From NCBI GenBank assembly GCA_021613535.1, contig CP075495.1, positions 310,001 to 374,000 on the forward strand: a stretch of 64,000 bases of DNA, written 5' to 3'. This stretch comes from Adineta vaga. Its lineage: Eukaryota > Animalia > Rotifera. Shown in pieces: positions 12,145 to 37,514 of this stretch. The notes beneath the pieces were generated by a model. That model was not told the origin of the DNA, made no database searches, and saw nothing but the letters and a program-made list of their open reading frames with translations. The position numbers were made by a program, and so were the translations under genes. The number at the start of each line of letters is the position of its first letter. The stretch's first letter is position 1.

Positions 12145-12425
12145 GGACAAGTAACGCTCGTCGTGCCGACTCACTTAACCCTCGACTGTGGAGGACAGAT
12201 ATTTTTTGAGTGTCGCAATAGTGAGACGAATTGACCTAGCAACTTTACATATGAGGAAATGGTTGAAGTGCTTTTACTGAAGTATTTATTACTCTTCGAA
12301 AACAAAAGTACTCGATTTTTCTAATAAAATCAACGAGAATAAGACGTATTTTTCATTGTGATCTTACAACAATATCATGAGTACTAGCAGTCAGGTCCAA
12401 AATTAAACAAAGCAAACAAAGATCG

Positions 12426-15400
12426 TCAGAAGCATTGAGCAAAGCGTAGTTGTGTTTCTGTATATAGTTTATCTAATCTTTCCGTCTCCGCAAGTTGCGA
12501 TTTTGCTGGCTTCATCAACAAAGTTTTGTAATCGAAATGTCTTAAAATGATTAAGTCAGTCAGACGTTTCACACGTGACAATGGCACATAAATTGCGGCA
12601 ATATCATCAGTTCTGCTTGGTAGTTTTAAATCAATGACAACATTACTCAAAGTTTGACCTTGACTTTTATGTGTTGTGATAGCAAATGCAGGCACAAGTG
12701 GCAATGCACGTCGCTTAATCGATATAATTGTTTTTGAATTTGATCTTGGTTTCTTATCTTTTGGTAGCATATCAGCGATATTAATACGGAATGATTGTTC
12801 CATCAATGGTATCGGGATGAGATTTGATTGAAGTTGTTCGAAATTGCATTCAATCTTCGACCGAGCGACTTCAATGATGGCGTACAATGGTTTACGGATA
12901 TATTGTATATTACTGAGGAATGTTTCTGAGATACTGTCTGTTGACACAGAATTTTCTTCATACACAAGTTGTCGAAAGATTCCATTCATTCCATTGATAA
13001 AACCCAGTTCTATAGCAATATTTTGTGTTAACATAACAGACATTCCAGGAACCAAAGATAAAAGACCAGGTAAATGCTCTGTTCTGCTATCAGATAATTC
13101 TAACAACTTTTTAACTAATTTTGGATCTTCGATTGATTTGCCTTTACAACTATCTTGAGCAGTGCACACCATAAGAGCTTGACCCACTTCTACTGCCTTA
13201 TGAATCGCTGCCTTATTGTTTAGTCTTGTCCGTACTTCGTTTCGGAACACGAAAATGGGCGCCTTAAAAGACGAAGATAAATAAGTATTCGATAGAAAAA
13301 GAGTTCTTTACTTTATTCCAAGGTGGATCACATAGAGAATTGACTGACGGTTGTCCCACAACTCGTGTTAACAGTAACTCATAATCGTCATGGTTACATT
13401 GTCCAAGACGAAGTCGATCGAGAAGTTGAAGATATTGAGAATCTTCCGTTCGCATCTGTTGAGTGAATTTCACAACGCAGTTAATCTGGAGAATTAGAGA
13501 ACGTGCAACACGTTGTTGAATTTCCTTCTCATTGAGCGATTTGTCTGGTTTTTTTTTCGATGGTAAAGAAAAATCAGTATATAATGGTGCATCGAATATG
13601 GGTCGGTATTGCATATAATCACCGAAGAAAATGACGTTTACACCACCGAACGGAATTTGAGCAACGACATGTTTTGCAGAGCACATTATTCGATTAAGTT
13701 TTGCCAATAAATGTAAACCAACCATACTTATTTCATCGATTAATAGATATTCAACCAGTCTCCACTCCTTTTCAAGTTTCGAATCACCTGCTTTAATGAT
13801 TCGTGGCTGTCTATAATTTCGTTGTTCACCTAAAAACGAATGAATGGTCATACCGCCAATTTCAGCAGCTGCAATCCCAGTAGGTGCAAGTTTTCGCATC
13901 ATCTGCATCCTTTTGGTGATAACAAAGTATTTGCTAAGAGCACGAATAAGTTGTGATTTGCCTGTACCGCCACATCCTGGTATGCACATTATAAGTTGAC
14001 CATTATTGTGACCTAGAAAGACGATAAATATTATCTTCTGGTAGACTATATTATGAAAATACCTGTACGATATTGACTATCACCATCAAGATGACTCGTA
14101 ATGATCATGAATGCGGCACGTTGCTCTCTATTCAATGTGAACTCATCAGCAATACTTTTTTGAGTGGGAACATTGGTTGTAATTGACACAACTGGAAGAA
14201 TTGAACCACCATTTGCGAGATTGCTGTTATTATTGTCACTAGTTGAATTCATTATTGTTACCATGGCATCTTTTGCAGCATGCATATCTGAAGATTCATC
14301 TGCTGTCTCATGATTACCTGTAATTAAACTTCGTCTTGCTCGTTCTTTTTCTGTTTTCAATTGCGCTTGTCATTTCTTATTTAAATTAACTAAATTGTTG
14401 GTTGCAGCAACAAATGGTCTAAGTTGTTGATTCATAGAGTCAGTAAATTCATTTGAGGTAGACGAACGGCTACCTACAAAAAAATCCATATTTATATTCT
14501 ACTTTGGATCAATAATTATCGCAAACTGTGACTCACTGGTTATATCGCTAAATCGTCCAACTTTTTCGACCGCCTCGATAGTTTCTTGAATATATTGATC
14601 TTCTGTTGTTCTTTTTTCGGCATTAGCTGCTGTAGTTGTATATTCATCTATGTCTTTTAACAACTCTGATAAAGCTTCATTATCATCTATATCGTCTTCA
14701 CTGTCAAAATTTCGATCTGTAGGTACAAGTACTGGATCGATTTCGTTATCATCAGTTTGCGCTTCTGTAATAACTTGAAATAGGTGTGCATCACGGTCCT
14801 TCTTACATTCATGTAAAAGTTGAATATTTTCTATGATCTTCCATGCGTGAATGGAAATGTGTGATTGACGAGAATTGAAAGCATCTTCCCACGTTTGGTT
14901 GAGGTCACAGAGATCAGCAATGGTGCGCCAAGGTACAAAGAGTGTAAGGATAGCTCGACAATATCGCTCTCGAGTATCAACACGATCTTGTCGAGGAATT
15001 TGTGGACCATAAAGAATCGGCACATGAGGTTCAGTATATTTCATCAAAACATGTGTTTTTGCTTGTGGATGTTGATTTTGGAAAGCGTAACGCTCATTAG
15101 GTGGGCGACCTCTTTTGTTGCCTTCGTTTTCTCGCGATACCATATTTGTTGATAAATATCTCAAGTCAGTTGCATTCATCTTTTTTTATATACAGCGCTA
15201 ACAAAATCATATAAACACATGCTGTTCAGAATATTGGAACGATATTGATAATCAATTCTTGTATTAACGAGTACGTAGTTTTTATCAGAATCAGGAGATT
15301 GAAGTTGGAAATTTTCTTCATCGTTGTTCTCATCATTAGTAGTTACATCATCAGGCATATCATCATCAGACAGATTATCATCAACTACGTCTAAAATTGA

Positions 15401-18400
15401 AAAATAAACGCAATAAGCATTAGTGTTTATAAATAAATTGTTTACCTTCGGCTAAGTGTGTCAATTTTTGTTTTACTCGGATCTGATTAAGCTGTGCTTG
15501 TAAATATCGTTCAGTTTGAATTAGAAAAAGACCTTGAAATTTGTGTGTCGTGTAATGGTCATTCCAACTCATGAGATAAGAAGCAACCTGTACTCCAGAT
15601 AGCTCTTGTTGAGAAGCAAGTGCATTGTAACACCGTAAAACCAATTTTCGCGATTTTTCAATTATATTCTGTTGATTCGTTTGATGAGATGGATCCACGA
15701 TAGTTGTAATACATTTTTGTACAAGAGAAAGTGTGTCATGGAAAGAGATACTCATTTTTGTTACATAGTCAGTAACATAATAGACAAGAGCTTTTGTATC
15801 ACTGCCGCTCCAAATAAATTTGATATCCATATTGGAACGACAAGCTGCTATAAGATACTCGTTAAAATTGTTGATCATTGGATCCGAGCGACGCATTGAA
15901 ATATTGCCAGTGTCTGGATCAACCGTTGACACGCGGACTATTTTTCGTGGCATACGCATGCGACAAATTTTTTTGAGGCCTCCCTTCTTCTTGCAATATT
16001 TATAGCAAGTATCAGTGTGGTAATGAGTGTTGCCTGTTTCTACCAACTGTACTACATCTGCTCGAAATCTTGATGAAAAATTAGGCGATGATAGATTTGG
16101 AGCAAATGAGCAAGCTGGTATTATTTTTGAGTTTTTATTTGAGGTATTATTTGTATCTAAAATAGGAATTAGATGTTCTATCCTCTTCTAATAATTTACA
16201 ATATCGTACTTCGTGTTGGTTGATCACGAGTTGGTGTTCGCATTGATTGATGTTGAGACGGAGAACCAAAGGAAATAGTTGACGCGCAAGCTCGAACTGA
16301 GGGAGATTGTTGATCTCTTCTTTGTGTCGCTTGAACAGGAGACTGGGGTTCGTTTTGATCACCATCTGTCAAATCGATAGTGCGCAAGGTTGTGTAAATA
16401 TTATTCTGTGAGCTTTTTTGAGGAGTATTAGATGAACTTGGTGCTATAGTATAACAAAGAGAGACATTCAAACAAGAATAAAAAGAAAAAGAGCCGTGCT
16501 ACTTGAATTTCCGGATACAGGTTTTTCCTTGAACTGATCTAAATCTTCTTTGATAATATCTTCCAAATAAGCTTTTAACTTTTCACGAAAATTGACATCT
16601 TGAATCTTTTCTTTAAGATCAGCGGATTTCATATCATGAGCAAGCCAAATAAGCAAATGTAAATGGAGAGAACCTCGCCCTTGGCTTTCAACAGTGCCGA
16701 AATAAGCCTTTACGGGTCCAAGAACACCACCCATTATCATAGTATCCAAGATATTGGTGATCAATACGTGAAAAAATTTGGCAGTGGCAACTGGATGTGA
16801 TGCTACAATTTCAGCTCTTTTGTAAGCATCCATAAGCTGTTCACTTTGAATATTGTCCAAATTAAGTTCAACCCCTGCAAAATATAGTGCTACAGGACTA
16901 TGAATATCAGCGGGATTTATAGTAAGGAAGATGCTGGGTAATCCTTGATTATATATAAGTGCATGGATTTGTGTGCGCAAAGCCGTACGTGAATACGCTG
17001 AACCCATGACTCGACCACCAACAGTTTTAATATGTTGGAGAAGCTTGTTCAATGTACTGTTTGACTCCGCACGACTGTACGGTTGCTTCAAACTGTTCTG
17101 AAGAGCTATTTCAATATCTTTACTATTTAACGATTGAATTTCATGGGCAGATGATCGAAAGTAAGGTTTTGTTGCTATCAGTTGAGCATGAAAACAGGCA
17201 TCACGACGTTGTAACAGATTAAAAATCACAAATATAAAACTCTCGCTTGTTTCAAAACGACGATCATTGTAAGATAATAGATATCGAATGTGCTCTCGAA
17301 AATTTACTTTAACTGGACGTGATTGATCTTCGGGTGTGCCAAGTCCATAACAGAATAAAGTTGGATACAGACCTGCCAATAACTTCGGATTGAAGTATTC
17401 GTTGACAGGTTTTGATGAATGAGGAATTAGGTAAATATTCTCGGTACTTGACTGATTGTTCTGTGTGTTATTTTTAATCTTGTTCAAAACGTAGGTAGAA
17501 ATTTCTTCTGAAGATACCGATGAGCCATCAACATCGAGAACAGCACTAAAAGAGACAGTCTATATGAAACAATTGATTTAATAAATATCCTTACCTATTA
17601 CTGATAGGTATTGCATCTGCAGTAGTGCATTCTTTCGGATCTAATAATGGATCGGGAACATATCCAGTTCTTTCGGGTTGATCCTTTTTATCACATATCT
17701 TTTGTTCTAAAGTTGATATAATGCATTCTGGCACATCGTCTTCCGGTAGTTGATTAATGTTTTGAAGATTTATATTAATTTTCTGATAAAGCATATTGTA
17801 CTTTTTCAACCATCGTAATGCTCGAATAATTTTCTGCTTACGTACTGTGAGAACTTTTTTTAGTTGAATACGATCGGGTGGACGAGCTCCAATAAATATT
17901 ACTTTCAGTGTATCACATAAATTGTCAAGCGCAAGTGGTAAACTATCGACAATATTTGGTACATTTTGAAAAAAACTAATACAATTTCCTTTCAATGCTG
18001 TTTGAGCAGTAGTAGTTGAATGAAAAGGCGAATGCAGTTTTATTATGCAACTATTATGACGATAAAATGAAATTAGTTTCTGTTCTGGAAGTGTCAATCC
18101 TTGCAGTTCAGCAGGTATGTCACCTATCCACATACTATTAGAAGGTGCGAACTTTGGGACAGATTTCTTCGAGAGGGCAACATGACATTTTTCACAAAGC
18201 CTGCACATGTTTACTTTCTTTTGCTGAAATAAACCGCTTTTGTATAAAATAACATCGTTTTGACAACAGAGCGATGACGAACTAAGTACTGAGAGATCTA
18301 AACAAATAAAGTCTGTATGCACTTTGAAACCACGAAATTACCTTTGTTATTCGCAGTATGTTTCGTTGTTTCTATATGGCTGTTGCTGAGGTTTTCATCG

Positions 18401-20091
18401 TCTTCGTTTAAATGTTTAATCAAACCCTTTAGCTCTTCAGAAATTTTAAGTAGATGACCATTCGGGATTTTTAGGACTGGCATTGTTTTCGAGTCTTTCG
18501 CTCGAGTATGAACATTGCAAACTGCGCAAGTGACTTCAACCAACATTGACATAGACATTTGTTCTAGAAACTGTTGTAAACGAGCCTCTTTCAACTCACG
18601 AGCAATTGGTTCAGGCCATGCTTGATCAACAGAAGGCCGTGACTCAACACTATTTCGGTCAATACCATTGTTTTCATATGATTGCTTTTCAAATCGTTTT
18701 GCAAGTCTATTGGTTTTGCTTAGTTTCCTTTGTTGTTCGAGTCGATTCCGACGTTGCTCTTCGGTTTCATCTACCCGAGCCGATAGACTTCGTTCTCGTG
18801 CTTTATCAAGCCGATTCTGACGTTGCTCTTCGGTTTCACTCATACGAATAGATCGGCTTCGTTGTCTTGCTTTGCCGAGTCGAATCTGACACTGTTCTTC
18901 TGTTTCGTTCAAACGACTTGATTGGCTACGTTGCCTTTTCTTCTCAAGTTGAATTTGACGCTGATTTTCTCTATCACTTTTCCCATTTTGTATTGAGCCT
19001 GAAATCATTGGCCCAGCGAGGTCTTTCTCGACGCTGCCATCAGTTCGTATTGGTCTACTAGGAGAAGATTGAAATTCTGGTATTCTTATTTGGATAGAAG
19101 AACTGTTCTTGAATGTTTTCTTTTGAGGAATCTAAAAACCTTAACATTAATAGATATTTGATGTGCTAATGATCGACTCACTACATTGATTGACGTTGAG
19201 TTATTGTGTCTGTCAGACTCATTTTGCATATTTGGCAATAGAAGTGGAACAAAATGATTCGGAATCCATCTACCATTACTCGTTGCCCGAGCAACATCTT
19301 GGTTTTCGGCACGCGACCACAAAATAGCAATAAAAGAATTAGCGATGACAGTTGGAACAGGTGTGAAGACGCTATTCCACAAAGCCATATACTGCTCAAA
19401 ATTAATTTTTGGATAGACACTTCGTATTTTACATTGTAGGACATTGGATAATGCGGCTACTTCATATAATTCGGAATATGTATTTCTTTTACAAATAGAT
19501 TGGATAGCCGTGTCGATAGGTCCAATCAAATGTGAATACATAGTTTGATAATAATTTTCATTCGACATAAGTTCCATGATATTTCGAACTAAAAATGGGT
19601 ACGAAATTAATTATACAATAGAATAGAGGAAAAAGTAAATCCTTTTACCTCTTAATTCACATGTGGTTACCGATGAATTATTCATCAAAAGAAGAATAGA
19701 ATGGTATAAACAATTTCCATCACCAGGAACATCGACCGGGAGAAGATGATGAACATCATCAGCCGCTTTTTCCAGATATCTCTTCGCTAACAGATCCACC
19801 GCATGTTTTCTCTCGTCGAAAACTTGAATGGGATGAAATTGCAATGGTACCACCAATGATTCAATCTACATCATAATACACATCGAAATTTAATCATCAT
19901 TTTATTTTAATCAACTTACTTGTTGAATTTTGTTTACAACCAAATTGATTTCATCGTAGTACATAGCACTTTCGGAACATTCCCAGAAGTCGAAGTACTC
20001 GTTTGAATTTAAGATCACGATTCATTGTGCTACATTGTGAGCAACAATAACCTGCGCAGTTTACGTTACAAAAAACACATCGTGTGCTCAT
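12426..20091 (-). pseudogene. Multi-exon Helitron-like OTU-Rep-Pif1 helicase gene, mildly disrupted
   Basis: N-terminal Cys cluster (MSTRCVFC..CCSQC); OTU-like VPGDGNCLYHS...PNHFVP; ETEEQR repeats; HUH Rep motifs FLTINPAD, VESQGRGSLHLH, YVTDYVTK; Pif1 motifs GCGGTGKS, LIDEISMV, FGDYMQ, THKSQGQTL, YVPLSRV. Many short GT-AG introns. Lesions: frameshifts near ~20000 and ~15180, in-frame TGA at ~14370. No C-terminal endonuclease. Confidence 0.92.
18730..18965 (-). repeat. 69-bp coding tandem repeat (ETEEQRxxRL...RS, 23 aa, ~3.5 copies)
   Basis: Visible in the ORF 18298-19008 translation and as recurring acgttgctcttcggtttca in the DNA. Confidence 0.85.
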
Positions 20092-20239
20092 GTTTATGTG
20101 CTGATCAGTTTCAATTGTGTGTAATACGGCCAACAATTGAACAGAGTTCTGCACACGATCATGCGACTGACACTTTCGTTTAGGACTTCTCTGACGTTTT
20201 GTTGGATTTGGTTCGTCTTGTCTTTGTTCATAGTCACCA

Positions 20240-21401
20240 TACTGTGTTGGACAATCGCTCGACAGGTGCCTACGATCTCCACACAAATAACATCCGTACA
20301 AATTCAGCTGTTGACAGATGTTCGCATCTTCTGTTTTTTAATCGGATTATCTACGTAAGAACTGAGTGTACGCACGTTTCTGTTTGTCAAGTGTTTGCTA
20401 CTCAACTTTGATGTTGCTTTATGTGAATACTTTTCATTACAATACTAGTTTGGTAATATTTCGGTTTTCTGAAGGAATAATTGTTTTAGTTGATTTGATA
20501 ATTGCTGGTTCCTGGCTCGACAATATAAAATGTCTTCTATTTGTTGAGCCTCGGCAATTATTTCATTCAATGAACCATTACGAGATTTTTTTATCAATTT
20601 GAATAAGTCCTTACGCATCCGACATAAAAAGTGTTTGACTAGATCAGTTTCAGTTTCATTCGGTTTATGTTCTCTCCAGAGAGCATGAAGACGAACTGAA
20701 AACTCATTTATAGTTTCACCCTCCTTCTGTTTACATTCATACCATTCAGCTTCTTGACGTGGTCTAGAAACCGTTGGATTAAATTGTATGAGAAATAATT
20801 CTTTAAATTCTTCCCATGTTCGCAGTTGACGATGCGACAGACCTAACTGAGAGTACCATTCCAGAGCTGATCCCCGTAGAAATTGTGAAACACCGTTGAG
20901 TAATGTAAGACTATCATCAAGACGTACTGATTTAGCATACTCTTGAACCTGAATCAAGAAATGTGCCGGACTTTCTGAATGCTTTCCGTGAAATACAGGA
21001 GCCTCTGAGGAAGATGGTATCGTAATTAAACACTCTGCATCGTTTGCCGAAAGTGCTGATGATATATTTGCTGCACCTTTTACCTCATGCTCCATCAGAC
21101 CCGAAGCTATTGAAAGGCCGTGTTCCGAGGAAGTATCTGTTTTTAACATTGATAGTCTTTCTGCTTTATATTCTTCCACTATTGCTTCACTATTCTGTGA
21201 GATAATCGGCGAGGTCATTACAGGTCCTGTAAATTTATTTAACTTGTTCAACATACAGTTCATTTTTGTAATCATATCAGCATACAAGATACAATTCGAT
21301 TGTTGTTTGTTTTCTACATTTTGTGTACGTGTCTTCAACCTGATGTGATGTAGGTAGTGATGGAGTAGTCGCTGTACTTTCAAACATCGACTGCAATTCA
21401 T
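20240..21401 (-). pseudogene. Ty3/gypsy-type gag-like gene (copy A) with detached CCHC knuckle
   Basis: PVFHGKHSESPAHFL..QEYA..SQFLRGSALEWY..W.EFKELFL..F..CKQKEGETINEF (retrotransposon gag/capsid-like). Knuckle CYLCGDRRHLSSDC lies downstream, separated by TAG (20445) and a frameshift. Confidence 0.8.
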
Positions 21402-21805
21402 AATTGTTTGAATTCATTTTTTCGTTTGTGACAGCTGATTAACAACGTTGATATTTCACCAATTTGATCTTCTGATGCACTCACCCAATATAAATTAATT
21501 TTGTCAACCAGCTTCTACCGCAAATACTCTCATCCTGGGGCAGTATAAAAAATTTGATCAGTGTGATATGGGTAACTGAACTTAATGGTTTTGGTTTATA
21601 TTGGGTGTATATCATAGAGCATATGTACCATTTAATATCCGTTCTCTCTCTCCTCCCTATCTTTTTACCTTCTCTCTCTTCCCTATCTTTTTCTTCCACT
21701 TACTTATTTACACATACTTGTATCGATGCACATAGAGTAGAAATTACTCTTCTATTTCATAAAATATCGTCCAGGTTTCTACCGATTCTCGATTGCAAAA
21801 AAATC

Positions 21806-23163
21806 ATGCCGTCTGAAAAAAAAACTTTAATTGAAAAAATTCGATTAGAAGAAGCTATTAAACGCATTCAAAATATGTGCGTAGACAATGCAGAGCGAAT
21901 CACAAAATTAGAAGAGAAACATAATCAGATATATAAAAGTATTACTCAAAAATATGAAGAAGCAGAAGGACGAATCTTAGATATACAGAGCCAAACTGCT
22001 GAGATGCGCATGAAAATGACATCAACATTAGACGAAGCGAAACAACAATTTGACCCAATTAAACAACAATATAGTGAAATTATCCAAACATTAAGTTCTC
22101 TAAGTAACGGAGAACAATCACAGTCACAAAATATTCAAAAGTCTTCAAATTCGTCAAAAAATCGTTTATTATCTACTCAACCAGTGTTAAATATAGACGA
22201 TCACTCAAATAACACTAATGAAACTATGCCTCTTCTTCAAGTAAATGAAGTTAAAATTCCAAAGCCACATTCAATTATAGTGCCTTTACCGACAGCAATT
22301 CCAACTTTCTCTGGAAAAAATTCAGAAAGCCCCAATCAATTCCTAATCCGTATTCAAGAATATGCTGAAATAGTTTACGGATGGGATGAGTCAACTCTAC
22401 TCCTTGGCATTTCTCAATTTTTACGAGATGCTGCATTAGATTGGTATTGTCAACTGAGAGCTTCTGATCGGCGTCCGCACAAATGGTCAGAATTTGTCAG
22501 TTTATTTATGTTCCAATTTCATTCGCCTATACAAATTGCTCATCAACAACAAGAGTGGTACGAATGCAACCAATTGGAAAATGAAACCATTAATGAATTC
22601 TTAATCCGCTTACGCACTATCTGGTATAAACAAAAGCCAAAAGAAACAGAAGCTGATTTGATAAAGCACTTAATGTGCAAAATGCGAAGCGATTTGTTTA
22701 CCATGATGGGTGTGATCCCTGGTGCTTCCCTGGATGATATTATATTAGAAGCACAAAAAGCTGAAGAAATATTATATTGCCGTAATCAGGAACAATCTTT
22801 AGCAAAATGTTTTAAACAAATTTCACTTAAAAACAATATTTTAGGTAATTATGAACATTTTAAAATCACGATCATAGAAAAAAAATCAATTGAATCTTAA
22901 AAATTTTTATTTTAGAATATTCGTCCGACGAAGAAAATGCTTTTCATCAAGGAAATAATGGCAACTCATTACAGGATACGAATAATGATTCATCTAAAAC
23001 ATCAAATTCTATTCAGTGCCGAAGCTGCAGAATATTTGGACATCTTTTTAAAGATTGTCCGAATAATAATGCGGACTTTTTTATTCCATCAACTGCTAAA
23101 AATTCCCATTCAAAAAACGAACACAGAGCGTTGGCAAGACGGGATGCCGACGCTCATTTATAG
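21806..23163 (+). CDS. gag-like gene (copy B), 2 exons (21806-22844, 22916-23163), coiled coil + capsid-like domain + CCHC knuckle
   Basis: IPTFSGKNSESPNQFL..SQFLRDAALDWY..CNQLENETINEF. Predicted intron G|gtaatt...tttattttag|AA (22845-22915, 71 nt) removes the TAA at 22898 and joins in frame to CRSCRIFGHLFKDC. Confidence 0.8.
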
Positions 23164-23546
23164 AACCACCCGTCCAAACAATATCTCATTTTTATCCAGT
23201 TGATTTTACCAAACACAATCCTTTTACTGTTTCAGGAAAAATAGCTGGTATAACAATTCCTTTACTCATTGATTCAGGATCATCATTGACAATCATTAAC
23301 AAAACGCTATTTTCAAAGCTACCATCTTATTTTCATCAACAAGCTAAATTGTGCTCACCTTGCTTATCTGTTCAATTAGCGGATAGATCCGAGCTGGATA
23401 TCGAATATGTTGTCCTCTCATTACCTGTTACTATTTCAAATACAACCCGTTGTAACACAGTTTATGTAGCACCTCGATTATCTCGGTTATGTATTATCGG
23501 ATATGATCTAATACAAATACATAATTTACAAATTGATGGAGGATAG
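23112..23546 (+). CDS. Retropepsin-type aspartic protease in the -1 frame of gag B
   Basis: LLIDSGSSLTII active-site motif and CIIGYDLI C-terminal motif. Slippery heptamer A AAA AAC at 23112-23118 in the gag frame, with the -1 frame open to TAG 23544. No RT follows. Confidence 0.8.
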   Translation, partial: KKRTQSVGKTGCRRSFIEPPVQTISHFYPVDFTKHNPFTVSGKIAGITIPLLIDSGSSLTIINKTLFSKLPSYFHQQAKLCSPCLSVQLADRSELDIEYVVLSLPVTISNTTRCNTVYVAPRLSRLCIIGYDLIQIHNLQIDGG

Positions 23547-23849
23547 CATACTGCATACTTCAAAAGTTCTAATGAAAATATATCGGATGATGGCAAATAC
23601 TGACAAAACAAATGTTTGTGTGACAATTTCCTTTTGTGAGCGTCTCTGTTCTTGAGATTGTCTATTTTTTTTATCGCTATCGCAGTTTGTCTTTTTCTTT
23701 TTTTCTGCTGACAGAATATATCCGATTACATCTCTATACATGATAAAAAAAGAAATAATATAAAGACCACAAGTTAAAAGAATTAAAAGAAAGATATTCC
23801 AGCTTGAGAAAAAAAGTTCGTATATGTGTATAGATGAATGATATAAGAG

Positions 23850-24085
23850 AGAACGAAACAAAGTTCACCGATTGAACAATGTTCGTACACGTGTATATAT
23901 GATGGATATCAAAGATGATGAAACAACGTTCACCGATTCAATGATGTTCGTATATATGTATATATGAAAGATATAATAGATGATGAAACAGCGTTGAACA
24001 ATTAAATCATCTTTGTATATGTGAAAGATATAATAGATGATGAAACAACGTTGAACAATTGAACCATCTTTGTATATGTGAAGGA
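23850..24085. repeat. ~57-65-bp tandem repeat, 3-4 diverging copies, between protease and env
   Basis: Unit gatataatagatgatgaaaca(g/a)cgttgaacaatt..catctttgtatatgtgaa occurs twice nearly exactly, plus upstream variants. Confidence 0.8.
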
Positions 24086-25840
24086 TATATGCAGCAGCAT
24101 GAAAAGAATGATCACGTGGATGAGTATAAATAGAGGAGGCATCGTACGAAATTTTATACACTGACTATTAAGATTTGAACGAAACACATCGTGTATTTAC
24201 TAAAATAATCGGTTTAAAGGTGATTATTTTGATTATTTAGTGGAAGAAGAACCCGTTAAGATCATATATACACAATAAATACAATAAAACAATCGGTTTA
24301 ATGGAAAGGATGGCAATTGTGGGTGTAAGAAATATTACATTTCTAATAATCATCACACCTATAAAAGTCTCAAAATCAGATGATTGGTTGTTAGCAAGAC
24401 AGGATATTGTTCATCCAACTTCCGGGCTTATTTTACAATATAAATCGGATTATAGACCCGCGAACAGAATTGTCACATTGTCAACAGTGATTCCTATGGT
24501 AGCTGATATGTGCTATCTGATTCCAATTTCTGCTTTTACAAAATTCCTCGATGTAACTTAACAATCGATGTGGTAAATTTTATCAATCATGATATCAAGA
24601 CCACGAAAAAGCCCGGGTTGATGAGCAGAAACAAAAGATTTTTAACTGATATCATTACTATTGGTATGAGCACTGCAGCTTTGGCTATGTCAACCGCAAA
24701 CATGATCCAAACCACAAACTTAAACCAAGAAGTAAAGTCATTAACAGAAACAGTTAAAACACTTCAAAAATCGAAATACACACAGGATGCTCAAATTCTA
24801 CAGCTCAGAGATGGACAGTTCAAAATAGCTGTGGAACTTAACAGTACACAACAAGCGATTAATCGGACAATGTATCTTGTCAATCAACACACAGATACTC
24901 TGCAGGATCATGATGAGGCCATAAGAAAAATTGGTGAATTTTCCACTTTTATCAATAATAAAGTGAATCAATTCATGCATAATGTTGAGGGCCATTTCCT
25001 GCATACTTCAATTGAAGGCATTCTCCGGGGTAATCTGAACTTACATTTTATTCATCACGACGATATACCGAAAGCTATTGAATATGTCATAAAAGCTACA
25101 AACATCTCATGCGAAGATAACAATAGCTCGATGTCAATGGTTGATTTAGTAACTCGGCTACTCGTTCGTCAAGAGATTTCGTTTGTCCCTACCATCCAAT
25201 TAAGAGCTTCGACATATGGGGCAATCATCAGAGAGTTAGTGTTTAACTCGTACTTTGCAGCTTCAAACTATGACGAAAAAACATTTTTTGTATATGAGCC
25301 GATACCAATTCCGTTCAAGCATGGACATAGACGTGTTAGAATTTCTCAAATGCCAGCTTTCATAGGAATTCAGCCGGATTCTCGTGAGTTTGTTCGATGG
25401 TCACGAAAGAAGGCGGAATCTTGTTGTTTTGAAGTGATGACATCATGCCGCATAACGCCAGCTATCCGAAAAGACCTTGAAGACATGTGCATTTATGAAG
25501 TTTTAGCAGATACATCATTAAGATCGTGCCGCATTGAACCTTATCTGGAGTCAGTATTTGTACGTAAAGTTGGGCATTATTGGGCGATCTCCACAAACTC
25601 GACTACAAAATGTCACACAGCTACCCATCCAGATTCCAACCACTATAAAGCAATGGACAACCATACGATCACCCTACCTCCAACTGCCTTAATTACTACC
25701 AAAGATTCGATGGATTCGTCATGTGACTTATTTTACTTGCCGGGCCTTTCAGTCCAATCCAATTCAAAACTTGTTCTCTATCAAAACTATACAATTAATC
25801 CTGTGGTTGGAGAAGTTCTTGATTTGCACTCCTTAATTAA

Positions 25841-28605
25841 CCCTCATACGCCCACCTGTAGGACTACCACTTATAACCCACCTGGGGTCCGCATGGACCC
25901 CAACCCAATAAGATAGATATAATACACCTTTTAAGTAGTATACTATGCTAGTATTATGTGGTATATAGTTTGTCTCTTAGACACTCATTAGCTTATAAAA
26001 AGAAACTATATTTCGTTATTTTATCATTTATTTCTAAAACATTTTTGTATAATCTACTTTTATCCTAAAAATGTTTCACTACACGTCGTGCAAACAACTC
26101 TGTGATGATCTGGACAACAGGGAGCATTACAACTTGAACAGTGAGTAATAACCTTGCGATCACGCTCTCTTGGGCAAAGATGGCAACGTTGTTTGGTAGT
26201 AGCCGTTGAAACAATAGATGGGTGTGAAGTAGTAACAGTTAGTCCAATCGCTTGTATAGCCATCAGAACGTTCTTTTGAAGTGCCTGTGGTTGATGTCGT
26301 CGTCGATCCAAATGCAACTGAACAAGATCATAACCTAATTCCATTAGAAATAGACATCGACGGTAGTTTTTCTTTTCATTCCATTGAGGATTTTTGGTTG
26401 TCCATACCACAAAAGCAGCAAGAGCACCAAGATCAAGTATGTTGAAAAAGAAAGTCATTGGCCATCGTTTTGTCTTTCGTTTGCACGAATAAGTTTGAAC
26501 CATCTGGTCCATATGATCAACACCACCTTTTGTGCTATTGTAATATAAAATAATCTCTGGTTTTTTCTTTCCATCGTCGACAATTGTCTGATCATGATGA
26601 AGAGATGACAGCAGAATCACGGTATGTGATGTTTTAGGTACATAACTAACTAGTGTTAGCTGTCGATCGAAACAAAATATAGATCACTGCTCAGGACGTT
26701 GTGTATTTGGCTGCAGCTCCCGTGTAATTCCCTTTTTGTTTCGTCGAATAGTTCCTACAAGAGTTGTTTGAACACCTAGAAGATCTTCTGCCAAATCTGC
26801 TCTGGTAAAATAGTTGTCTGTAGTAATGGTTCGTCCTGTATTGATCCAAGGATATGCTGTATCTGAATCACAACACCAAAAGATCTTCAGTCCATATTTC
26901 CCAGGTTTACTAGGCATATATTGACGAAAATTGCATCGACCACGAGTTGGAATAAGCTGTTCGTCTACCGTGAGCGATCCACCAGGCGTGTAGCATATTT
27001 GTAATCCACCTAAGAACATTGTCCATAAATCTCGTATTGCTGCTAGTTTATCTGACTTCAGTCTTTCCTCTCGTGTTGTTGTATCGTCGAATCGGCAAAA
27101 CTGAAGTAAGGCTTTGAAACGATTCTTGGACATAGTTGCTCAAAATATAGGTCGTCCATTGATCATTGACCACAATTCATTCAAACTTTCATTCTTTGCT
27201 CGATGAATACCTGCGAGGAGTAATAACTCAATGAAAGCCCACATTTCTTCAAGATCCGTATCCCTCCATTGGTATTCTTTACCAGAATTTTTCTTATTCC
27301 ACTGTCCCAAGATCAGATGCGCTCGTCGATTAGTTTCCTTCACCAAGATAAGAACCATTTCTTGAGTGATCAAAACCTGAAATGCTTCTTTCACTGTTTG
27401 TATACCTGCAGCTAGTCGTCCAACACCATTTTGCTGTCGTAAGATATTAGCTGATGGTATTTTTCTTTTGGGAGGTTCCTTTGATGTCCATTGACATCCA
27501 GATTTTGCTGTAAATATTTGAACTGGTGATTGCTCAGCCTTTCATTGACGTTTTGCTCGACGTCTAGGTGGTTCATCATCACTGTTACTTTCAGTTTCAA
27601 CAGTACTTGTACCAGATTCATCATCTGAATCCTTTTCAACCACGCCACCATCTGATTCATCAGAACTTTCTTGAAGAGTAAAAGGTATTTCGTCATCTTC
27701 AGAATCATTATCAACATCATCATCTTCGTCGTTCGACTCATCGTTGAAGTGCTTGGAATATCGAGACCAGTGTTTCGATTGATTGGAATTAGAGCGTTTC
27801 TTCGAATCCATATGTTTTCGTATAATAGTCGTAGGTAGTGAGATATATAATGACTTTACTATTTCAGTGAATGGGTTTATATAGGTTTTTATGAAGAAAA
27901 TCAAAGAACTCGCTAGAAAATGGCAGAAATAAGTGGAATTACTAGAAGCTACAAGAGAGAGCATATGTCATCTATATAGAAAGAACGAGAAAAAAAACAT
28001 GTGTACTTGAACATACCAGAAAAATGATGCACGTATGAACGTATGATAGCAGAACGAAATAAGATATACATATAATATGTATATATAGTGACGTCATGTC
28101 AATAGCAGAAAGAAAAACCTATGCATGTAGAGTCGTACTGCACAAAAGTATTATTCATGAAAATATTCAACTTTTACATTGGAGACGTAATTATTTAAAA
28201 AAATAACAGAAGAGTTGTAAGAATAGTCAGATATGCAGAATATACCGTTTTAATGCGACTGATATATTTCACAGTTTATTAGAGAGCTATAGAATATTCC
28301 CACATGAGTGGACAGATGTATAAAATATGAGAATGAAAAATTTATGATCAAATATTAGGAGAAAACTAATGTTATAATATGGGGTCCAGTTGGACCCCAG
28401 GTGGGCAATATACGTATATATCAACTTTGAAGTAATTTATCTCATAGATGACTTAAAGAGATAAGCGAATGCTTTCTATAGTATACTCTACTACTCTTCA
28501 CTAGAGCATATGTAGAGTGGCGTGATATGATCTGTCATCGTATATATAAAACATTAGAATGAAACTAGCTGGGGTCCGCATGGACCCCAGGTGGGCGTTT
28601 CAGGG
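25841..28605 (-). mobile_element. piggyBac transposon, defective
   Basis: TTAA TSD on both sides; TIR ccctcatacgcccacctg / caggtgggcgtttcaggg; internal GGGGTCC-N4-GGACCCC palindromes at ~25884, 28381, 28571. Confidence 0.95.
26060..27811 (-). pseudogene. piggyBac (PGBD4-like) transposase with stops and an internal deletion
   Basis: Acidic N-terminus; TVDEQL, YMPSKPGKYGLK, ITTDNYFT, YNSTKGGVDHMDQ; C-terminal CHLC..CSSC..CC..H..CTTC. Broken across several ORFs. Confidence 0.92.
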
Positions 28606-29410
28606 TTAACAACAATACTAAATGGGAGAAATTACCGTACATCCCGTCACACATTCAAAGCATACTTCACCTGATGAGTAACATTACAGAAGCTCCTTAG
28701 ATCTTCTTTTGGGGACAATTTAAAACCCATTCGACAATCACTTTCAACATTATATCAATAGGAGTATTAGTTATACTGATCATTTTCCTGATAGGTTACA
28801 TTCGTTTCAAACATCAGAGAAAATCAAAAGTGACAATTACCATACCATCACTCAAAACACTCGAACAACAGGAACTAACGCTTAGCAAGTGACAGCAATG
28901 TCCCTGTTTTTTTTTTGTTTACACATCTGCGCGCCTCTGAAGCAATCCACCTTTGACATTACACTAGTTCTCATCATTTTTCTTGTTAATACTATGAACC
29001 TATCCATAGTGTTGTAATTGTATGAATAAAAAAGATTTTCACCATTCGAAAGCACATACTTTTGTTCTTGTTATCTCTACTCTTCCAGCACAGTTCGCGC
29101 GAGGACAATCATCACCACTCCGAAGCATATATTATAGAAAGAGTTCTACAACGATATTTACTTATCAATACTCTATTCCACAAAAAAACCTACACCTAAC
29201 AAATCTTTTTCTTTTTTCCGATGCACCAACTCCTACTTCAAATACTTCAAAGCAACATACACACTTTGTTTCTTCAATTACATACGCTCCTCCAACCAAC
29301 ATAATTCTTTTTCTCATTTTCTAATGATAATCAGGTACTCTCGCGATTTTTTGGAACCTGCCGGTGGGCACACCAAGGGCGACGTGAACCCAAGGTGCCC
29401 GACAAGAACC

Positions 29411-29505
29411 CACTATGGCCAACCCCGCCCACCTTGGCCAACCACAACCCACCTTGGCCAACCCCATGCCCAGCTTGGCCAACCACCGGTCACCATGACT
29501 AACCC
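29411..29505. repeat. GC-rich ~20-bp tandem repeat (cacc/cagc-ttggccaacc core, ~5 copies) near the Helentron 5' end
   Basis: cactatggccaaccccgcc / caccttggccaaccacaacc / caccttggccaaccccatgcc / cagcttggccaaccaccggt / caccatgactaaccc. Confidence 0.85.
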
Positions 29506-29879
29506 GCGCGCATCTAACATGGGCCACTTTCAGTGTGTTTCTTTTGTTTTTTCGCATACATGAAGTTTGACCTTTGACCCCGTGCAAACAGACAGACAAA
29601 CTATTTTATTTCATATGACCTTCCTTACAGTCGAGGGAATAATAATATAGTAATAATAATAACGTCCCATAGGCTAAACGCTCGTAGGGACCGGCCGCGG
29701 TTATTATTTATTTTTTCTACGTGCAGCCGGGTCTACCGTCTTTCTTCTTTTGCTGTCTTTCTAGTACATACGTATTCATTCTGTCTGATCCAACATCTTG
29801 GTTGATGCGTGAAGGTTTGGGTGTGAAATTATATTTATTTATTTATACACCCTAACCATTACTGGGGTGTGGGTGAGAA

Positions 29880-32058
29880 ACATGATACAAAAAACTGGTA
29901 AAAACGAGAAAACAAAAGAGTGAGTCTATCGTCTATTTTTCGGCGAACACCACGTTGATTGCCACTAAAAATTGAGAGAGATATTATCAGACTATTATCC
30001 TCTGATGAACAGTTTAGATACTAGTCATCATACGAAACCCAATTCAATTTTAGTAGTTGAACAGCCATAAATTTGTTTAGTTGATTCTGTTACTTTTGCA
30101 CCATGTTCTTGCTGTCACGCACGATTTGACATGATTGATAATTCCCTGTGGTTTAAACCTTAGTTTGCAACCAGGACATCTGTATTGTCCATTCTCTTTA
30201 ACCAATAGTTCTGTGACTTTACAATTTGTAAGACCTGTCAAAACAGCTAGATCTGTTTTTCTTCTCTGAGCAGATTGTTTTCTATATTGATATACAATAT
30301 CTTTAATGTTTTCAGAGACTGGTTTTACATAAACATTTTTATTAATTGTTTCACGCTATTTTTTCCTGTCAAGCGTCAGTCTGCGCCAGTTCCGTATTTG
30401 TGATTCATTTATATCTTTTAGGATTTTGTCCTCCCACTGTTGCATCTTCCTACATTACTTGGTCTCTTTTCATCATGAAAATATTTCAGTTGACGGTTGA
30501 CCTGTAATATTTAACAATTTTTCGTTAGACATTCTATCAACTAAGTTTACTCCTATGATTGTCCGTAAGCATTTATTATAGAAAGTAGTTATCCGTTGCT
30601 CTTGTTTTGTTGTAAGAGCCCATGTTTCACTTCCGTATAGTAAGACTGGTAATACACAAGCTCTAAAAATACGAAGTCTTGCTGTGATAGAGACTGATTT
30701 TCTATGCCATACAACATGACGTAGAGCATTGAAAGCTTTAGAAGCTTTTGTCAGTCTTACAGATATTTCTGTATCATGTTGCTGATCTTTCGTTATAGTG
30801 CAACCTAAATATGTAAAAGACTCAGCTGTTTCAATTTTTTGATTTCTGATATTTATATTTATATCGTCATCATAGTTGATAAATTGTCCTTTTAATACCT
30901 TTCTATTTTGATCTTCTTTCAGTTGTTGTAGAGTCATCACACAGGTTTTTTTTATGCTCATAGTCAAACCATATTGTTGTGTGACTTTTTCAAAACATCT
31001 AATAAATTTTTCTAGGTCAGAGATCTTTTCACACATCGCAACGAGATCATCTGCATATAATAATGCTAAAATATCGAAGTCAACATGGTTTTCGTTTTTT
31101 CCGTGACAGAAATCATTACTACCATACGAAAAATTTACTCCTGATATGGCAGCTTCACTAATGACTTCTTTTATGATGAAGTCAAATAGAATATTGAATA
31201 AGAGTGGAGAAGGAATACCTCCTTGCATCACACCTGTATTCATTTCGAAACTATCAGATATTTCACCATTTATTTTGACTTTTGCTATTGAATCTTTATA
31301 TAGCATTTTTAATAAGTTAACCAATTTATCAGTAATGCCATAACTACGACATACTTTCCATAACAGTTCACGATTGACCGAATCATAGGCTTTCGTGATA
31401 TCAATGAAGCACATAAATAATGGCTTATTGAATGCTCTTCTTTTTTCCATTGTCATTTTCAAAGTAAATATCTGATCTATAGTCGATCTATTTGATCTAA
31501 AACCAGATTGTATTTCTAATAGTTGGCAATCTATTAGATTCTGAATACGATTAAGTATGATACGTGAGAACAGTTTACTAGTTGTATTCAAAAGTGCAAT
31601 ACCTCTATAGTTGTCGCAAATTTTCCTATCACCTTTATTTTTGTACAGTTTGATTAGGGTTGTCATGTTCCATTCCGTTACCATCTGTTCGTTCTCCCAT
31701 ACGTCAGTAAAGAATTCGAACAGCCAACGTATTATTGGTTCACCACCAGCTTTTAGGATGTCAACACCCTCACCCACACCCACCCCAATCTCTTTTACTT
31801 CCTCCTCTGAGACGTCTAATAATGGAAAAAGCCGTCATAGGATCATTATTTTTTATCGATTTTTCTATATTTTCACACACTTCATCCCAGTATTCTTCTT
31901 GACGATGTTCTGCCATTATTTTTACTATTTTTGTCAGCCGTTTATAGTTTTTATCACATTTGGGCTCCATACTCGAGCCACGATTATTTTGTCATTCAAC
32001 AAATACTATTGATTTTTTATCAATAATTTTTAGAATATCGTTTGTTAACCATTCTGTC
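29880..32058 (-). mobile_element. 5'-truncated non-LTR retrotransposon (RTE-like), RT ORF 30473-31783
   Basis: NYRGIALL, QSGFRSNRSTIDQIF, FIDITKAYDSV, GVMQGGIPSPLLFN, LLYADD, FTYLG, VLLYGSETW. Downstream remnant includes WRRLTLDR and a CPGC..H..SC finger. Internal deletions at ~31770 and ~30475; no endonuclease domain. Confidence 0.88.
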
Positions 32059-32815
32059 TAAAGGGGGTGTGAAATGAAGAAGTCAATCTAATCCGCATTC
32101 TAACCCATACCCACATCCACACTAATTGTTCTTGAAAGATGTAGATTATGCTATTCTGTGAATGGTTGTAAAGAACATAAAAGGGATTCTGGGCAAAAAC
32201 GCTTTCTAGAAGCAATTAATGGCTTTTGTTAACGGTCTGTTGTTTTTCTTGAATCCATCCAAAGTTGATTATGATAAATGTTTGTAAACATAACTCACGA
32301 AGTTCTGAATGATTGTGTCAGGCATTCCTATGATATCTCAAAAAGTAAGGCGGCTATGGTGATTGCATGCAGTACAGATACCACTTATTGTGCCTATCGC
32401 TTATGTGTCATATAATGACACTGTTAAATCGTACATTGACTGTGGAAGACAAGAAATATTCACATTTATTAGTATTTATGTGAGTTTCAGTGCGAATTGT
32501 GGGAATCTAATACGCTGTCGATGAGTCTGTACGAGCAGTATTCGGTCAGAGTTGTAGATGGCACCTTAACTGTAAATTTAAAGCAATCACTTTGACTGAA
32601 CATTTTGAAGTTGAAGTTAATGCGGAAGCGTTAAACCCTTTTTCAAAATATAGTTAGCGTTAAAGTACTATTCTAATTCCAACCTTGAGTATATATTAGC
32701 GCAGTCTGGAGTCGTATGATTGTCGAAAATATTGAAAATTATTTATTTCTATTTTCAGGAAGCATATTTCTGTACTTAGTTTGAAAGTAGTAGTAAAATT
32801 AATAGAAAATTATCA

Positions 32816-34936
32816 ATGAATATTCTGATTCCATTGCGTGGAATCGGTGATCGGTTCAGCAAAGAAAACTATCGGCTTCCAAGACCATTAATCAAAATCG
32901 TTGGAAGACCTATTCTATTTTGGGTCTTCGATCACATAGATACAAAAAATGATGATGTTATATACTTAGGACTTCCAAAAAATTTAGGAGAACAATTTGA
33001 TTTGATCGAAATATTGAAACTCGAATATCCTAAGCATGTGTTTGAAGTAATCATTCTGGACTTTGAAACTAGGGGCGCAGCAGAAACATTGTTTATTATA
33101 TCACAATCAATACCAAAAAATCGTTTAGAGCGAAAAACCATTTCTCTTGACCACGATACAATTTATTTTAAGTCAATTGTTGAACAATTTCGTCAGCTAC
33201 CAAATAACTTAAATGCCTCGTTCTATTTCGAAGATATTGATAATAAGCCTTTGTATTCTTACTTGAAATTCGATGAAAATAGGACCTACAATGGACACTT
33301 CTTTGTGTCAGATGTGAGTGAAAAAATAATGATCTCAAGTCATGCGAATACTGGCGCTTATGCTTTCCGATCGGCTTCTGTTTTAAAGAAATTTTGCACA
33401 CAACTATTGGATGAAGCATTTCGGGATTCTGGCGAATATTATACAACAAATTTAATGAGACTAATGATCAGTGACAATGAACACTTTATTGGAATACAAA
33501 TACATAGAGAAGATTTCGTTTGTGTTGGAACTCCTGATCATCTAGATCAGTTTCTGAGAAGACTAAAAACTAAAGAAAGTCCAGCTGCTGTTCGTAAAAT
33601 GAGGTTTTGCTTTGACTTCGACAATACACTGGTATCCCATCCAAGTAAATATGGCGACTACGAATCCGTTGAGCCGAAAATACAGAATATTCAATTGCTT
33701 CGAGAACTACATGCGGTAGGTCATCATATTACAATTCAAACCGCACGTCGGATGAAAACACATAATGGTAATGTTGGAGGAGTGATTGCCGATATTGGCC
33801 GAGTAACAATGGAAACACTAGTAAAACTTAGGATACCTTATGACGAGTTGCTCTTTGGGAAACCATGTGCAGATGTTTATATTGAAGATTCAGCTATTCA
33901 TGCTTTAATTGATACAACCAAAGAGATTGGATGGGCACTTGACCATGCTGAGGAAGATTTTCAAAACAAAAAGCAATTAAAAGGATTTGTGTCTCCTCGG
34001 CATTTTCATACAATTCAACAGTTAGATAATTTGATTATCAAGAGCTCCTCGACCGATTGCCTCCAAGGTGAGATATATTTCTATCAAAACATACCACCAT
34101 CAATTCGAGATATATTTCCTCATTTGGATCGCATTGAAACGAACAAGAATGCTGGTGTTTCATCCATAGTTATGAGAAAAGTAAACGGAATTACCTATTC
34201 ACATTTATTCACCAATCTATGTCTAACCAAAAGACGATTATTGAAATTTCTATCATCATTGAAACGTATTCACTTATCGTTATCAATAGAGAGCACTAGC
34301 CCAAACTCAGATATTTACGCAAACTATTCTGACAAGATTATAGCTCGATACAATCAATATATAGATGTCTATAATGCTCTTGATGCACATTTCAAAAGTT
34401 CCATCAACTCATCAGTGATTCGTTCAGTCGAATTTCTTCATTACCTACTTGACTATTTCATCGAATACAAAGGATCTAAACGTGGTCAACAAACACCAGT
34501 CATTCATGGTGATCCAGTCTTCAGTAATGCATTGCTAACGCCCGATAGTCGTGTAGTTTTTCTCGATATGCGAGGTTCTTTGGCTGACAAAACTAGTCTA
34601 CAAGGTGATTTAAATTATGATTTAGCTAAAGTGTATCAATCATTAACAGGATACGACTTTATTTTATTGAATAAAGTCGAATTATTGTCAAAATCTGTAG
34701 TAAAGATATACCTATCTGAACTTGTAGATTTATTCAAGGATTTTATTTCAAGAGAGTACTCAAACGTTCCAGATATAACTGATATAAAAATGATTACTGC
34801 ACAACTTTATTTTAGTTTAATACCATTGCACAGCACTTTTCAGCATCAAACACAGTTTTATGAATTTGCAATTCAATTATATCAGGACAGCAGATTGAAC
34901 AATAACCCTCACGTTGTACAGAACGAACAGCAGTAG
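32816..34936 (+). CDS. Intronless tri-domain enzyme: NTP-transferase + HAD phosphatase + APH/choline-kinase-like phosphotransferase
   Basis: N-terminal ILIPLRGIGDRF..LPRPLI, ETRGAAET, ANTGAYAF, GEYY, VGTP; middle FCFDFDNTLV, TARRM, FGKPCADVYIEDSA; C-terminal VIHGDPVFSN, FLDMRG, YDLAK. Confidence 0.85.
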   Translation: MNILIPLRGIGDRFSKENYRLPRPLIKIVGRPILFWVFDHIDTKNDDVIYLGLPKNLGEQFDLIEILKLEYPKHVFEVIILDFETRGAAETLFIISQSIPKNRLERKTISLDHDTIYFKSIVEQFRQLPNNLNASFYFEDIDNKPLYSYLKFDENRTYNGHFFVSDVSEKIMISSHANTGAYAFRSASVLKKFCTQLLDEAFRDSGEYYTTNLMRLMISDNEHFIGIQIHREDFVCVGTPDHLDQFLRRLKTKESPAAVRKMRFCFDFDNTLVSHPSKYGDYESVEPKIQNIQLLRELHAVGHHITIQTARRMKTHNGNVGGVIADIGRVTMETLVKLRIPYDELLFGKPCADVYIEDSAIHALIDTTKEIGWALDHAEEDFQNKKQLKGFVSPRHFHTIQQLDNLIIKSSSTDCLQGEIYFYQNIPPSIRDIFPHLDRIETNKNAGVSSIVMRKVNGITYSHLFTNLCLTKRRLLKFLSSLKRIHLSLSIESTSPNSDIYANYSDKIIARYNQYIDVYNALDAHFKSSINSSVIRSVEFLHYLLDYFIEYKGSKRGQQTPVIHGDPVFSNALLTPDSRVVFLDMRGSLADKTSLQGDLNYDLAKVYQSLTGYDFILLNKVELLSKSVVKIYLSELVDLFKDFISREYSNVPDITDIKMITAQLYFSLIPLHSTFQHQTQFYEFAIQLYQDSRLNNNPHVVQNEQQ

Positions 34937-37172: not shown

Positions 37173-37514
37173 ATCCACATGGATTTATTTGAAGTACCAG
37201 TAGAAGTACCAAGTATATTTTTAAAATATAAGCATAGGTACAAGGCGATGTTTTCTGTGTACGATAACAGAGTGCCGTCATATATCCCGCGCTTCAAAGA
37301 CGCTCCTTCATTTCTCGCAGGAGACGAACTGGTCTTTAAAACGCGGGATATATGACACTGCTGGAAAACACAAGTAACCACCCTTGTCCGTAGAACAGTA
37401 GGTTGTGTATTAAATATATAGCATGTTTTCTCATGTAACGTAGAAAGATCCTATGATAGGGAATCTGATCTTGTGGGAAAATCATATTTTATTTCAGCAA
37501 GAAGATATAAGGAT

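Follow-up and report, generated by a model that had tools for sequence, protein, structure and literature searches.

The window, by which we mean the whole 64,000-nt stretch of Adineta vaga DNA analysed here, contains a rolling-circle transposon of the HLE2 class that encloses a cassette of retroelement-derived genes. On balance, we favour a reading in which the structural genes of an env-bearing LTR-type element were captured and became DNA cargo of the HLE2, with a gag linker that would have been intronized and a Gag-protease predicted to arise by -1 frameshifting. What stands out is an HLE2 that combines a structural module of retroelement origin with a fusion of Gag to RepHel. The features of the element are as follows.

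12147..29642, minus strand: whole HLE2 rolling-circle element, approximately 17.5 kb including a later piggyBac-type insertion
12160..12189, minus strand: 3' subterminal inverted repeat (12179-12189) and short palindrome (12160-12170)
12426..19964, minus strand: RepHel gene, with OTU-like domain, STPRs, DUF6570, Rep and PIF1 helicase (Pfam)
19920..21390, minus strand: gag1, with capsid domain, knuckle, old pol-frame leader and Cys-rich piece
21806..22844, plus strand: gag2 exon 1, with coiled-coil-like N-terminus and capsid domain; no lesion
22845..22915, plus strand: predicted phase-1 intron, from a 22-codon coding linker
22916..23163, plus strand: gag2 exon 2, with CX2CX4HX4C knuckle (23017-23058), ending where the Gag of relatives ends
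23112..23174, plus strand: -1 frameshift signal, with heptamer (23112-23118), 7-nt spacer, stem 1 (23126-23136 with 23145-23155) and predicted pseudoknot stem 2 (23138-23143 with 23169-23174)
23112..23546, plus strand: aspartyl protease frame, with LIDSGS (23265-23282) and a premature stop (23544-23546)
24301..28892, plus strand: F-type env-like gene, 40-44% identical to the env of autonomous relatives
25877..28605, minus strand: piggyBac-type DNA transposon within env (DDE_Tnp_1_7, inverted repeats; ends approximate)
29627..29637, minus strand: 5' subterminal inverted repeat, 5 nt inside the element end

The rolling-circle element and its ends

The element runs from its 5' end at 29642 to its 3' end at 12147. 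Both boundaries were placed by comparison with other copies: contigs from runs X6, X7 and X11 lose similarity at 12147, while similarity breaks off at 29642 in run X8. A single X8 contig links 12193 directly to 29604, as would fit a short derivative. The 11-nt inverted repeat has just two matches in the window (at most one mismatch), at 12179-12189 and 29627-29637, compared with an expected 0.26; two or more matches were found in 4 of 100 shuffles. It was absent from all 21 related loci searched. The hairpin of the 3' palindrome does not exceed shuffles in stability (z 0.52), and the flanking DNA is T-rich at the 5' end, not at the 3' end. Subterminal repeats and short derivatives are known for such elements, according to the available part of PMC4067079. 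Tandem repeats of a kind common in HLE2 families occur at 23827-24080 (approximately 65 nt) and 29368-29505 (approximately 20 nt).

Assignment to HLE2 is based on a RepHel with DUF6570 (PF14214, PF05970, PF20209) and on the short subterminal inverted repeats at both ends. DUF6570 is given as an HLE2 marker, and an endonuclease as needed for a strict Helentron, in the accessible text of PMC11417382. No match to an AP endonuclease was found after the helicase, the last RepHel exon stopping past the helicase domain, so the element is not a Helentron in the strict sense. An earlier note on this DNA had proposed recruitment of the gag gene by a Helentron; the cassette does lie within the ends of a rolling-circle element, and it is the class of that element that needs revision, to an HLE2 without endonuclease. 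On the minus strand, the intron-rich OTU-RepHel gene is preceded by gag1; the plus strand carries gag2, the protease frame and the env-like gene split by the piggyBac-type element. RepHel has 11 inferred introns, all those of the element (n = 11) falling between 44 and 63 nt, and its exon chain is unbroken across the first eight; it is interrupted by a frameshift near 15180 and by a single internal stop.

No direct repeat flanks the cassette, nor was there any similarity to the LTRs of relatives, including the 523-nt LTR of L021; LTR remnants at the cassette were rejected as a candidate on the lack of a match to the LTRs of this autonomous element. Since LTRs and RT are missing and HLE2 ends are present, we infer that the genes have been inherited as DNA. 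The earlier note had drawn the same conclusion from the intron in gag2. This part of the argument does not stand by itself because some retroelements retain introns, as Arkhipova et al. are said to have described in 2003. Searches of viral contigs gave no match for gag2, the gag2 alignment, Rep or the 3' end motif. Locus L017:2081-2122 matches the element's 3' end at the point where the pol reading frame of a related retroelement ends, and is probably an inserted short HLE2 derivative.

Outside the element, the window holds a 718-codon unbroken ORF at 32780-34936 (plus strand) with a weak match to a capsule-biosynthesis phosphatase (TIGR01689), a candidate foreign gene, as well as an unbroken nucleotide-sugar transporter ORF at 40157-41377 (plus strand) and a 295-codon ORF at 7985-8872 (minus strand) with no Pfam or NCBIfam match. 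A reverse transcriptase ORF at 30473-31834 (minus strand), unmatched by the LTR-type Pol of relatives, is probably a non-LTR element. Two long inverted repeats, at 3876-4368 (210 nt at 98%) and 37480-38703 (its arms nested, and a related copy lying at 11700-12140), are probably MITE-like.

The retroelement cassette: gag1, protease and env

The autonomous relatives L001 and L021 encode a gag of 480 codons, a pol of approximately 1,300 codons and an env. L021, the sole autonomous element found on searching genome contigs, is a complete LTR retrotransposon with 523-nt LTRs that are 99% identical; its contig is labelled as a cyanobacterial MAG and is likely to be mis-binned eukaryotic DNA. Loci L010, L012 and L018 are gag-env without pol, with knuckle and env in one frame in L018. 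L002:48-2138, the long ORFs of L006 and L007, and P0034 encode Gag in frame with a common C-terminal region of approximately 300 aa, which contains a hydrophobic stretch and has no Pfam match; this is a separate pol-less Gag-fusion family.

At the end of gag2, the heptamer A AAA AAC (23112-23118) is phased so that a -1 shift leads into the LIDSGS frame (23265-23282), as the earlier note had described. AAAAAAC is found near the gag end in nine of the ten loci examined (those with a downstream protease among 20 metagenome loci), and also in autonomous L021. The 11-bp stem of the window has a z of -3.67, with |z| <1.2 in four of five relatives. When the two stems were scored over 11 sequences, 93.9% of cells were paired, compared with 32-44% in slid controls, and 5 of 12 pairs had two-sided changes, both pairing and covariation counts being inflated by kinship among the 11 sequences. 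The site thus combines an in-phase X XXY YYZ heptamer with a short spacer and a conserved downstream structure, as in programmed -1 frameshifting. That the heptamer and predicted pseudoknot represent the inherited Gag-Pol signal of the parent family, rather than a new one, is well supported.

The Pol of L001 aligns past the stop at 23544-23546 as far as approximately 23570, where the match ends. This stop was rejected as the natural end of the family's frame, given that the similarity of relatives continues to approximately 23570; the earlier note had taken the frame to be intact and to end right after the protease, and it in fact terminates some ten codons too soon. Downstream of the protease, neither RT nor RNase H nor integrase was found, the Pol of L001 and L005 matching the protease only, which upholds the earlier view that pol was lost beyond this point. 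In a search restricted to 78-251 aa, three of five short protease hits end 4-5 residues past the AY(F/C)K motif (one match ended early and one continued), with 70-77% identity. Four more protease-only members, on contigs of 12-57 kb, likewise end 4-5 residues past AY(F/C)K. Full-length Pol matches (n = 7, length-limited search) are more distant, at 51-61% identity. Pol loss after the protease looks like a trait of the lineage. No match to the protease query was found in genome contigs, and Pfam dUTPase had no match in the Pol of L001, L005 or L008.

The second gag gene appears to have been joined to the replicase. Window gag1 is broken by one stop and three frameshifts, with the same frame at both ends. 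L020, a single 1.2-kb contig that is 78.5% identical to 19461-20696, provides 260 open codons that start in the capsid, take in the knuckle and the Cys-rich piece and reach a phase-0 donor; an OTU-like exon follows, placing gag1 in frame with the first OTU-RepHel exon. Both L020 and window gag1 follow the gag frame of relatives as far as the old slip site, and past it they follow the pol frame for approximately 33 codons (in comparison with the five closest of eight relatives), so the shift would be fixed in the DNA. Read in this way, the predicted OTU-RepHel occupies the protease-RT position after gag1. Between window and L020, over few codons, dN/dS is 0.41 for the capsid and 0.34 for OTU, and 0.67-0.95 in the four other blocks, the knuckle and pol leader among them. 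The closest full-length relatives, P0001 (gag2-like) and P0094 (gag1-like), derive from equal-sized source contigs (5411) of the same sources, which hints that the head-to-head gag1/gag2 pair recurs. Linkage of gag2, protease and env to an HLE2 was observed in this window only; co-location elsewhere rests on the equal-sized source contigs of P0001 and P0094. In the ESM Atlas, the L020 frame matched nothing beyond generic clusters of Gag and of the knuckle.

The env-like gene matches Fusion_gly with E 5e-4 (below the family cut-off) and HMPV F with E 0.06. It is broken by a frameshift near 24540, the piggyBac-type insertion and a stop at 28698-28700, with similarity to env picking up again at approximately 28602. 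An intron was rejected as the cause of the frameshift as no strong GT..AG pair occurs there. TATA-like boxes are present at 21544-21550, before gag2, and 24125-24131, before env; from the latter, env may have its own promoter. Counted across the element, gag1 carries four lesions, RepHel two, the protease one and env three, whereas the gag2 exons are free of them. In all probability this copy is dead, and our claims concern the lineage, which is likely to have kept the genes as working cargo.

A different origin of the cassette would be that one or two LTR elements inserted into the HLE2 5' region and lost their LTRs and pol by deletion, remaining as passengers that bring no benefit. The intron may even be real in such a scenario, having arisen by drift or in a non-autonomous LTR derivative like TelKA2n. 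Pol-less derivatives are indeed known, both TelKA2n (PMC5408684, in the part available) and loci L010, L012 and L018, and the piggyBac-type element demonstrates nesting in the same HLE2; 19 of the 20 other loci have no RepHel or OTU similarity, most of them being short, and dN/dS is near 1 for the gag1 linker and knuckle block. However, no LTR remnant is present, the pol of several relatives is cut just past the protease, and the gag1 frame has become fixed where the old slip site lay and, in L020, continues open into OTU. Open gag2-clade ORFs also persist at 56-70% identity in several bdelloids. We therefore consider nested passengers improbable, and prefer capture as cargo.

The 71-nt segment of gag2 and its coding origin

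From the ATG at 21806, the gag2 ORF reaches a stop at 22898-22900 and encodes 364 aa (Retrotrans_gag E 9e-11), in agreement with the earlier note, which placed the stop at 22900. Excision of 22845-22915 joins 1039 nt to 248 nt, giving 429 codons with a stop at 23161-23163. This confirms the central observation of that note, namely that splicing of a 71-nt GT..AG segment would lead in frame to a CX2CX4HX4C knuckle; the segment is of phase 1.

Splice signals were scored using donor and acceptor matrices built from nine RepHel introns, themselves inferred from DNA but made credible by an exon chain that remains open over the first eight introns. The 71-nt segment scores 17.9 bits, compared with 5.8-16.2 bits for the nine RepHel introns (leave-one-out), and is the top-scoring GT..AG pair of the plus strand between 21400 and 29600. 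As a null, coding DNA taken both from relatives and from the window (31,191 nt) yielded 1,082 in-phase GT..AG pairs (44-90 nt), none of which matched 17.9 bits; chance pairs span 1.1% of coding positions at the median intron score and 7.1% at the weakest. At 17%, the GC content of the segment lies under that of all 2,663 sampled 71-nt gag windows (minimum 24%). The linkers of nine relatives contain no GT..AG pair scoring up to even the weakest intron. Alternative GT..AG pairs across the same break were rejected, the best having 14.8 bits and a length of 194 nt. The earlier note had found the segment to match host introns in both consensus and size: the consensus holds at 17.9 bits, and the 71 nt are longer than any of the element's 11 inferred introns (44-63 nt).

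The segment thus has a donor and acceptor of intron strength and a phase that restores the frame, and the same boundaries recur in the gene model of a relative, P0128 (protein level only), all as found for spliceosomal introns. An X4 contig, possibly from the source material itself, covers 22835-23012 with zero differences. Eight of 13 runs were compared with the window, and none of the six guessed to be RNA has a contig at 22845-22915, a blank that weighs neither way. Two X8 contigs, from a run whose type was guessed as RNA, span inferred RepHel introns without a gap and count against the splicing reading. Taken at the level of DNA and protein models, we regard it as quite probable that the segment is a spliced intron.

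Comparison with relatives suggests where this predicted intron came from. Between the same anchors, nine of ten scored relatives (the nine representing approximately six independent lineages) have a linker of 22 codons (66 nt), and the tenth has 28 codons; this count omits P0002, P0003, P0010, P0015 and P0099, none of which extends past the linker, as well as the divergent P0009, P0098, P0200, P0202 and P0203, whose anchors were unscored. The closest Gags read in a single frame through the linker to the knuckle. In a frameshift-aware alignment of the segment with these linkers, shuffles were as good in 1 of 200 cases for P0001, 10 of 200 for P0006, 6 of 500 for P0150 and 3 of 500 for P0199; for five other relatives the alignment was no better than shuffles (35-136 of 200). 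The segment-to-linker similarity is modest. Gain of the intron by insertion, as the earlier note proposed, was rejected because a 22-codon coding linker occupies the site in nine of ten relatives; the segment instead aligns to that linker.

Intronization of coding sequence was reportedly described by Irimia et al. in 2008. In this process, a 3n stretch of exon in a dispensable region comes to be spliced out, with stops gained later (PMC2586383, in its available part). The earlier note held that an intron would be refuted by a lack of spliced reads together with alignment as coding sequence in relatives. One half of this, the coding alignment, was found; homology of this kind does not refute an intron because intronization predicts it. 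Indeed, outgroups have a homologous 66-nt (3n) coding stretch, and the derived state is confined to a single clade.

The tenth relative, P0004 from A. ricciae, has a linker of 28 codons with a Gly-Asn start and a Phe-rich end, the trace that GT and a T-rich acceptor would leave in protein. It matches the 71-nt segment best, with 0 of 200 shuffles as good. Its cluster mate P0128, also an A. ricciae model, joins the flanks exactly at the intron position of the window, and P0002, with Gly at the donor position, breaks off ten residues into the linker. P0128 has a second join, from Gag straight to protease, which skips the knuckle and frameshift and has DSR for DSG; the window has an acceptor-like sequence near 23236 with GC, not GT, at the donor, and this join is probably a predictor bridge over lesions. 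In a tree with the linker excluded, the window, P0002 and P0004 form a clade (support 84/86 and 90/96, neither starred) nested among the continuous forms that read through the linker. Grouping of the window with P0150, a continuous form with the most similar flank, was rejected (p-AU 0.021), and the window and P0004 have a common deletion in exon 2. A capsid-core FastTree, which leaves out P0020 and L020, does not group P0004 with the window. The segment is likely to be a former coding linker that was intronized in one subclade, as opposed to an inserted intron.

Decay could in principle mimic this pattern: ordinary frameshifts and stops would have accumulated in the linker, with the GT and T-rich AG arising by chance in AT-rich, slippage-prone DNA. 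The element does carry about ten other lesions, the segment is homologous to coding linker, and the A. ricciae copy is degenerate too, its models P0004 and P0128 being in disagreement. However, none of the 1,082 null pairs was as strong, the linkers of nine relatives fall below the weakest intron, and a second species (A. ricciae) has the same boundaries. Moreover, the sequences with Gly at the donor (n = 3) are those with a disrupted linker and form a clade, while neither the 346 upstream codons nor the knuckle exon carry a lesion. Decay is therefore an unlikely explanation, and intronization is retained as the preferred one.

Named homologues of gag2 come from Adineta, Rotaria and Didymodactylos, and open gag2-clade ORFs at 56-70% identity were found in A. 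steineri, A. ricciae, a Rotaria and other assemblies. A metagenome scan did not find a close gag2 relative (best segment 61%), so no DNA from the intron-bearing clade was seen. The gag2 capsid has a profile match to Drosophila Arc1 (E 7e-4), and this likeness, with the intron gain reported for domesticated genes, could point to gag2 as a host gene of Arc type that has acquired an intron and just happens to sit within an old copy of the transposon. Against such domestication, gag2 lies within the element ends, its relatives are multi-copy (clusters of 2-9 near-identical members), the frameshift, protease and env of the retroelement are kept, and scarcely any expression signal is to hand. A domesticated host gene is thus very hard to credit when set beside the cargo reading.

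Proposed history, known systems and implications

In the history we favour, an HLE2 would have captured the retroelement genes, with RT, integrase and LTRs subsequently lost and the cassette thereafter propagated as DNA by RepHel. In one subclade, a 66-nt linker in which an AG was already present would have acquired a GT and been spliced out, drifting afterwards through frameshifts, stops and T-rich gains as both flanks stayed open. Spliced RNA would then give a 428-aa Gag with knuckle and, by -1 frameshift, a minor Gag-protease, and unspliced RNA a 364-aa Gag without knuckle. The second gag would have been joined in frame to OTU-RepHel instead of Pol. More speculatively, the element may be a virus-like rolling-circle transposon, in which gag2 would form a shell matured by Gag2-protease, Gag1-OTU-RepHel would co-assemble in the position of Gag-Pol and bring along the replicase with circular DNA, and F-type Env would transfer the particle from cell to cell or from animal to animal; we hold this as a tentative idea that is rather doubtful at present.

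The parent family is labelled TelKA by architecture, not by sequence comparison with the named TelKA. As described in the available part of PMC5408684, TelKA has a gag with a CX2CX4HX4C knuckle, a gag-pol frameshift and an F-type env, and TelKA2n, like the cassette, is missing most of pol. In contrast to TelKA, the cassette has no LTRs, RT, RNase H or integrase, contains a predicted gag intron and is enclosed by HLE2 ends; unlike TelKA2n, which has no gag C-terminus (PMC5408684, same part), it keeps knuckle and protease.

With HLE2 elements (Helitron2, Helentron, with HINE/DINE-1 partners), it has in common RepHel, DUF6570 and an upstream OTU-like domain, together with subterminal inverted repeats, internal tandem repeats and short derivatives that share both ends (PMC4067079 and PMC11417382, in the parts available). 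It differs in lacking an AP endonuclease, in having STPRs, reported mostly from HLE1 in the available text of PMC11417382, and in holding two gag genes, a protease and env. The same text names 19 of 20 captured domains, neither Gag nor Env being one of them, and in the portion available makes no mention of gag, rotifer or Adineta. In the literature covered, most subscription journals and Repbase being outside that coverage, we found no account of a Helitron that carries gag or env.

The predicted intron resembles published intronization (PMC2586383, available part) in that a piece of exon whose length was a multiple of three (3n; relatives have 66 nt), in a dispensable linker, now has stops, and differs in being a prediction in a retroelement-derived gag aboard a DNA transposon. 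Teratorn (piggyBac and herpesvirus) and Polintons likewise tie a DNA transposase to virion genes, according to the accessible parts of PMC10175614 and PMC6431247. Here, by contrast, the replicase is of the rolling-circle type, the capsid, protease and class I fusogen come from a retroelement, and the predicted fusion of Gag to the replicase parallels Gag-Pol.

If the intron is real, it offers a datable birth of an intron from coding sequence, with outgroups that still read the protein. If the cargo is stable, Helitron-like elements can take up a capsid-protease-envelope module and fuse Gag to their replicase, which bears on host-to-host movement of rolling-circle transposons and on the uptake of foreign DNA by bdelloids. 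Should the particle reading be true, a DNA transposon would have rebuilt a retrovirus-style virion, with a possible route of DNA transfer in bdelloids.
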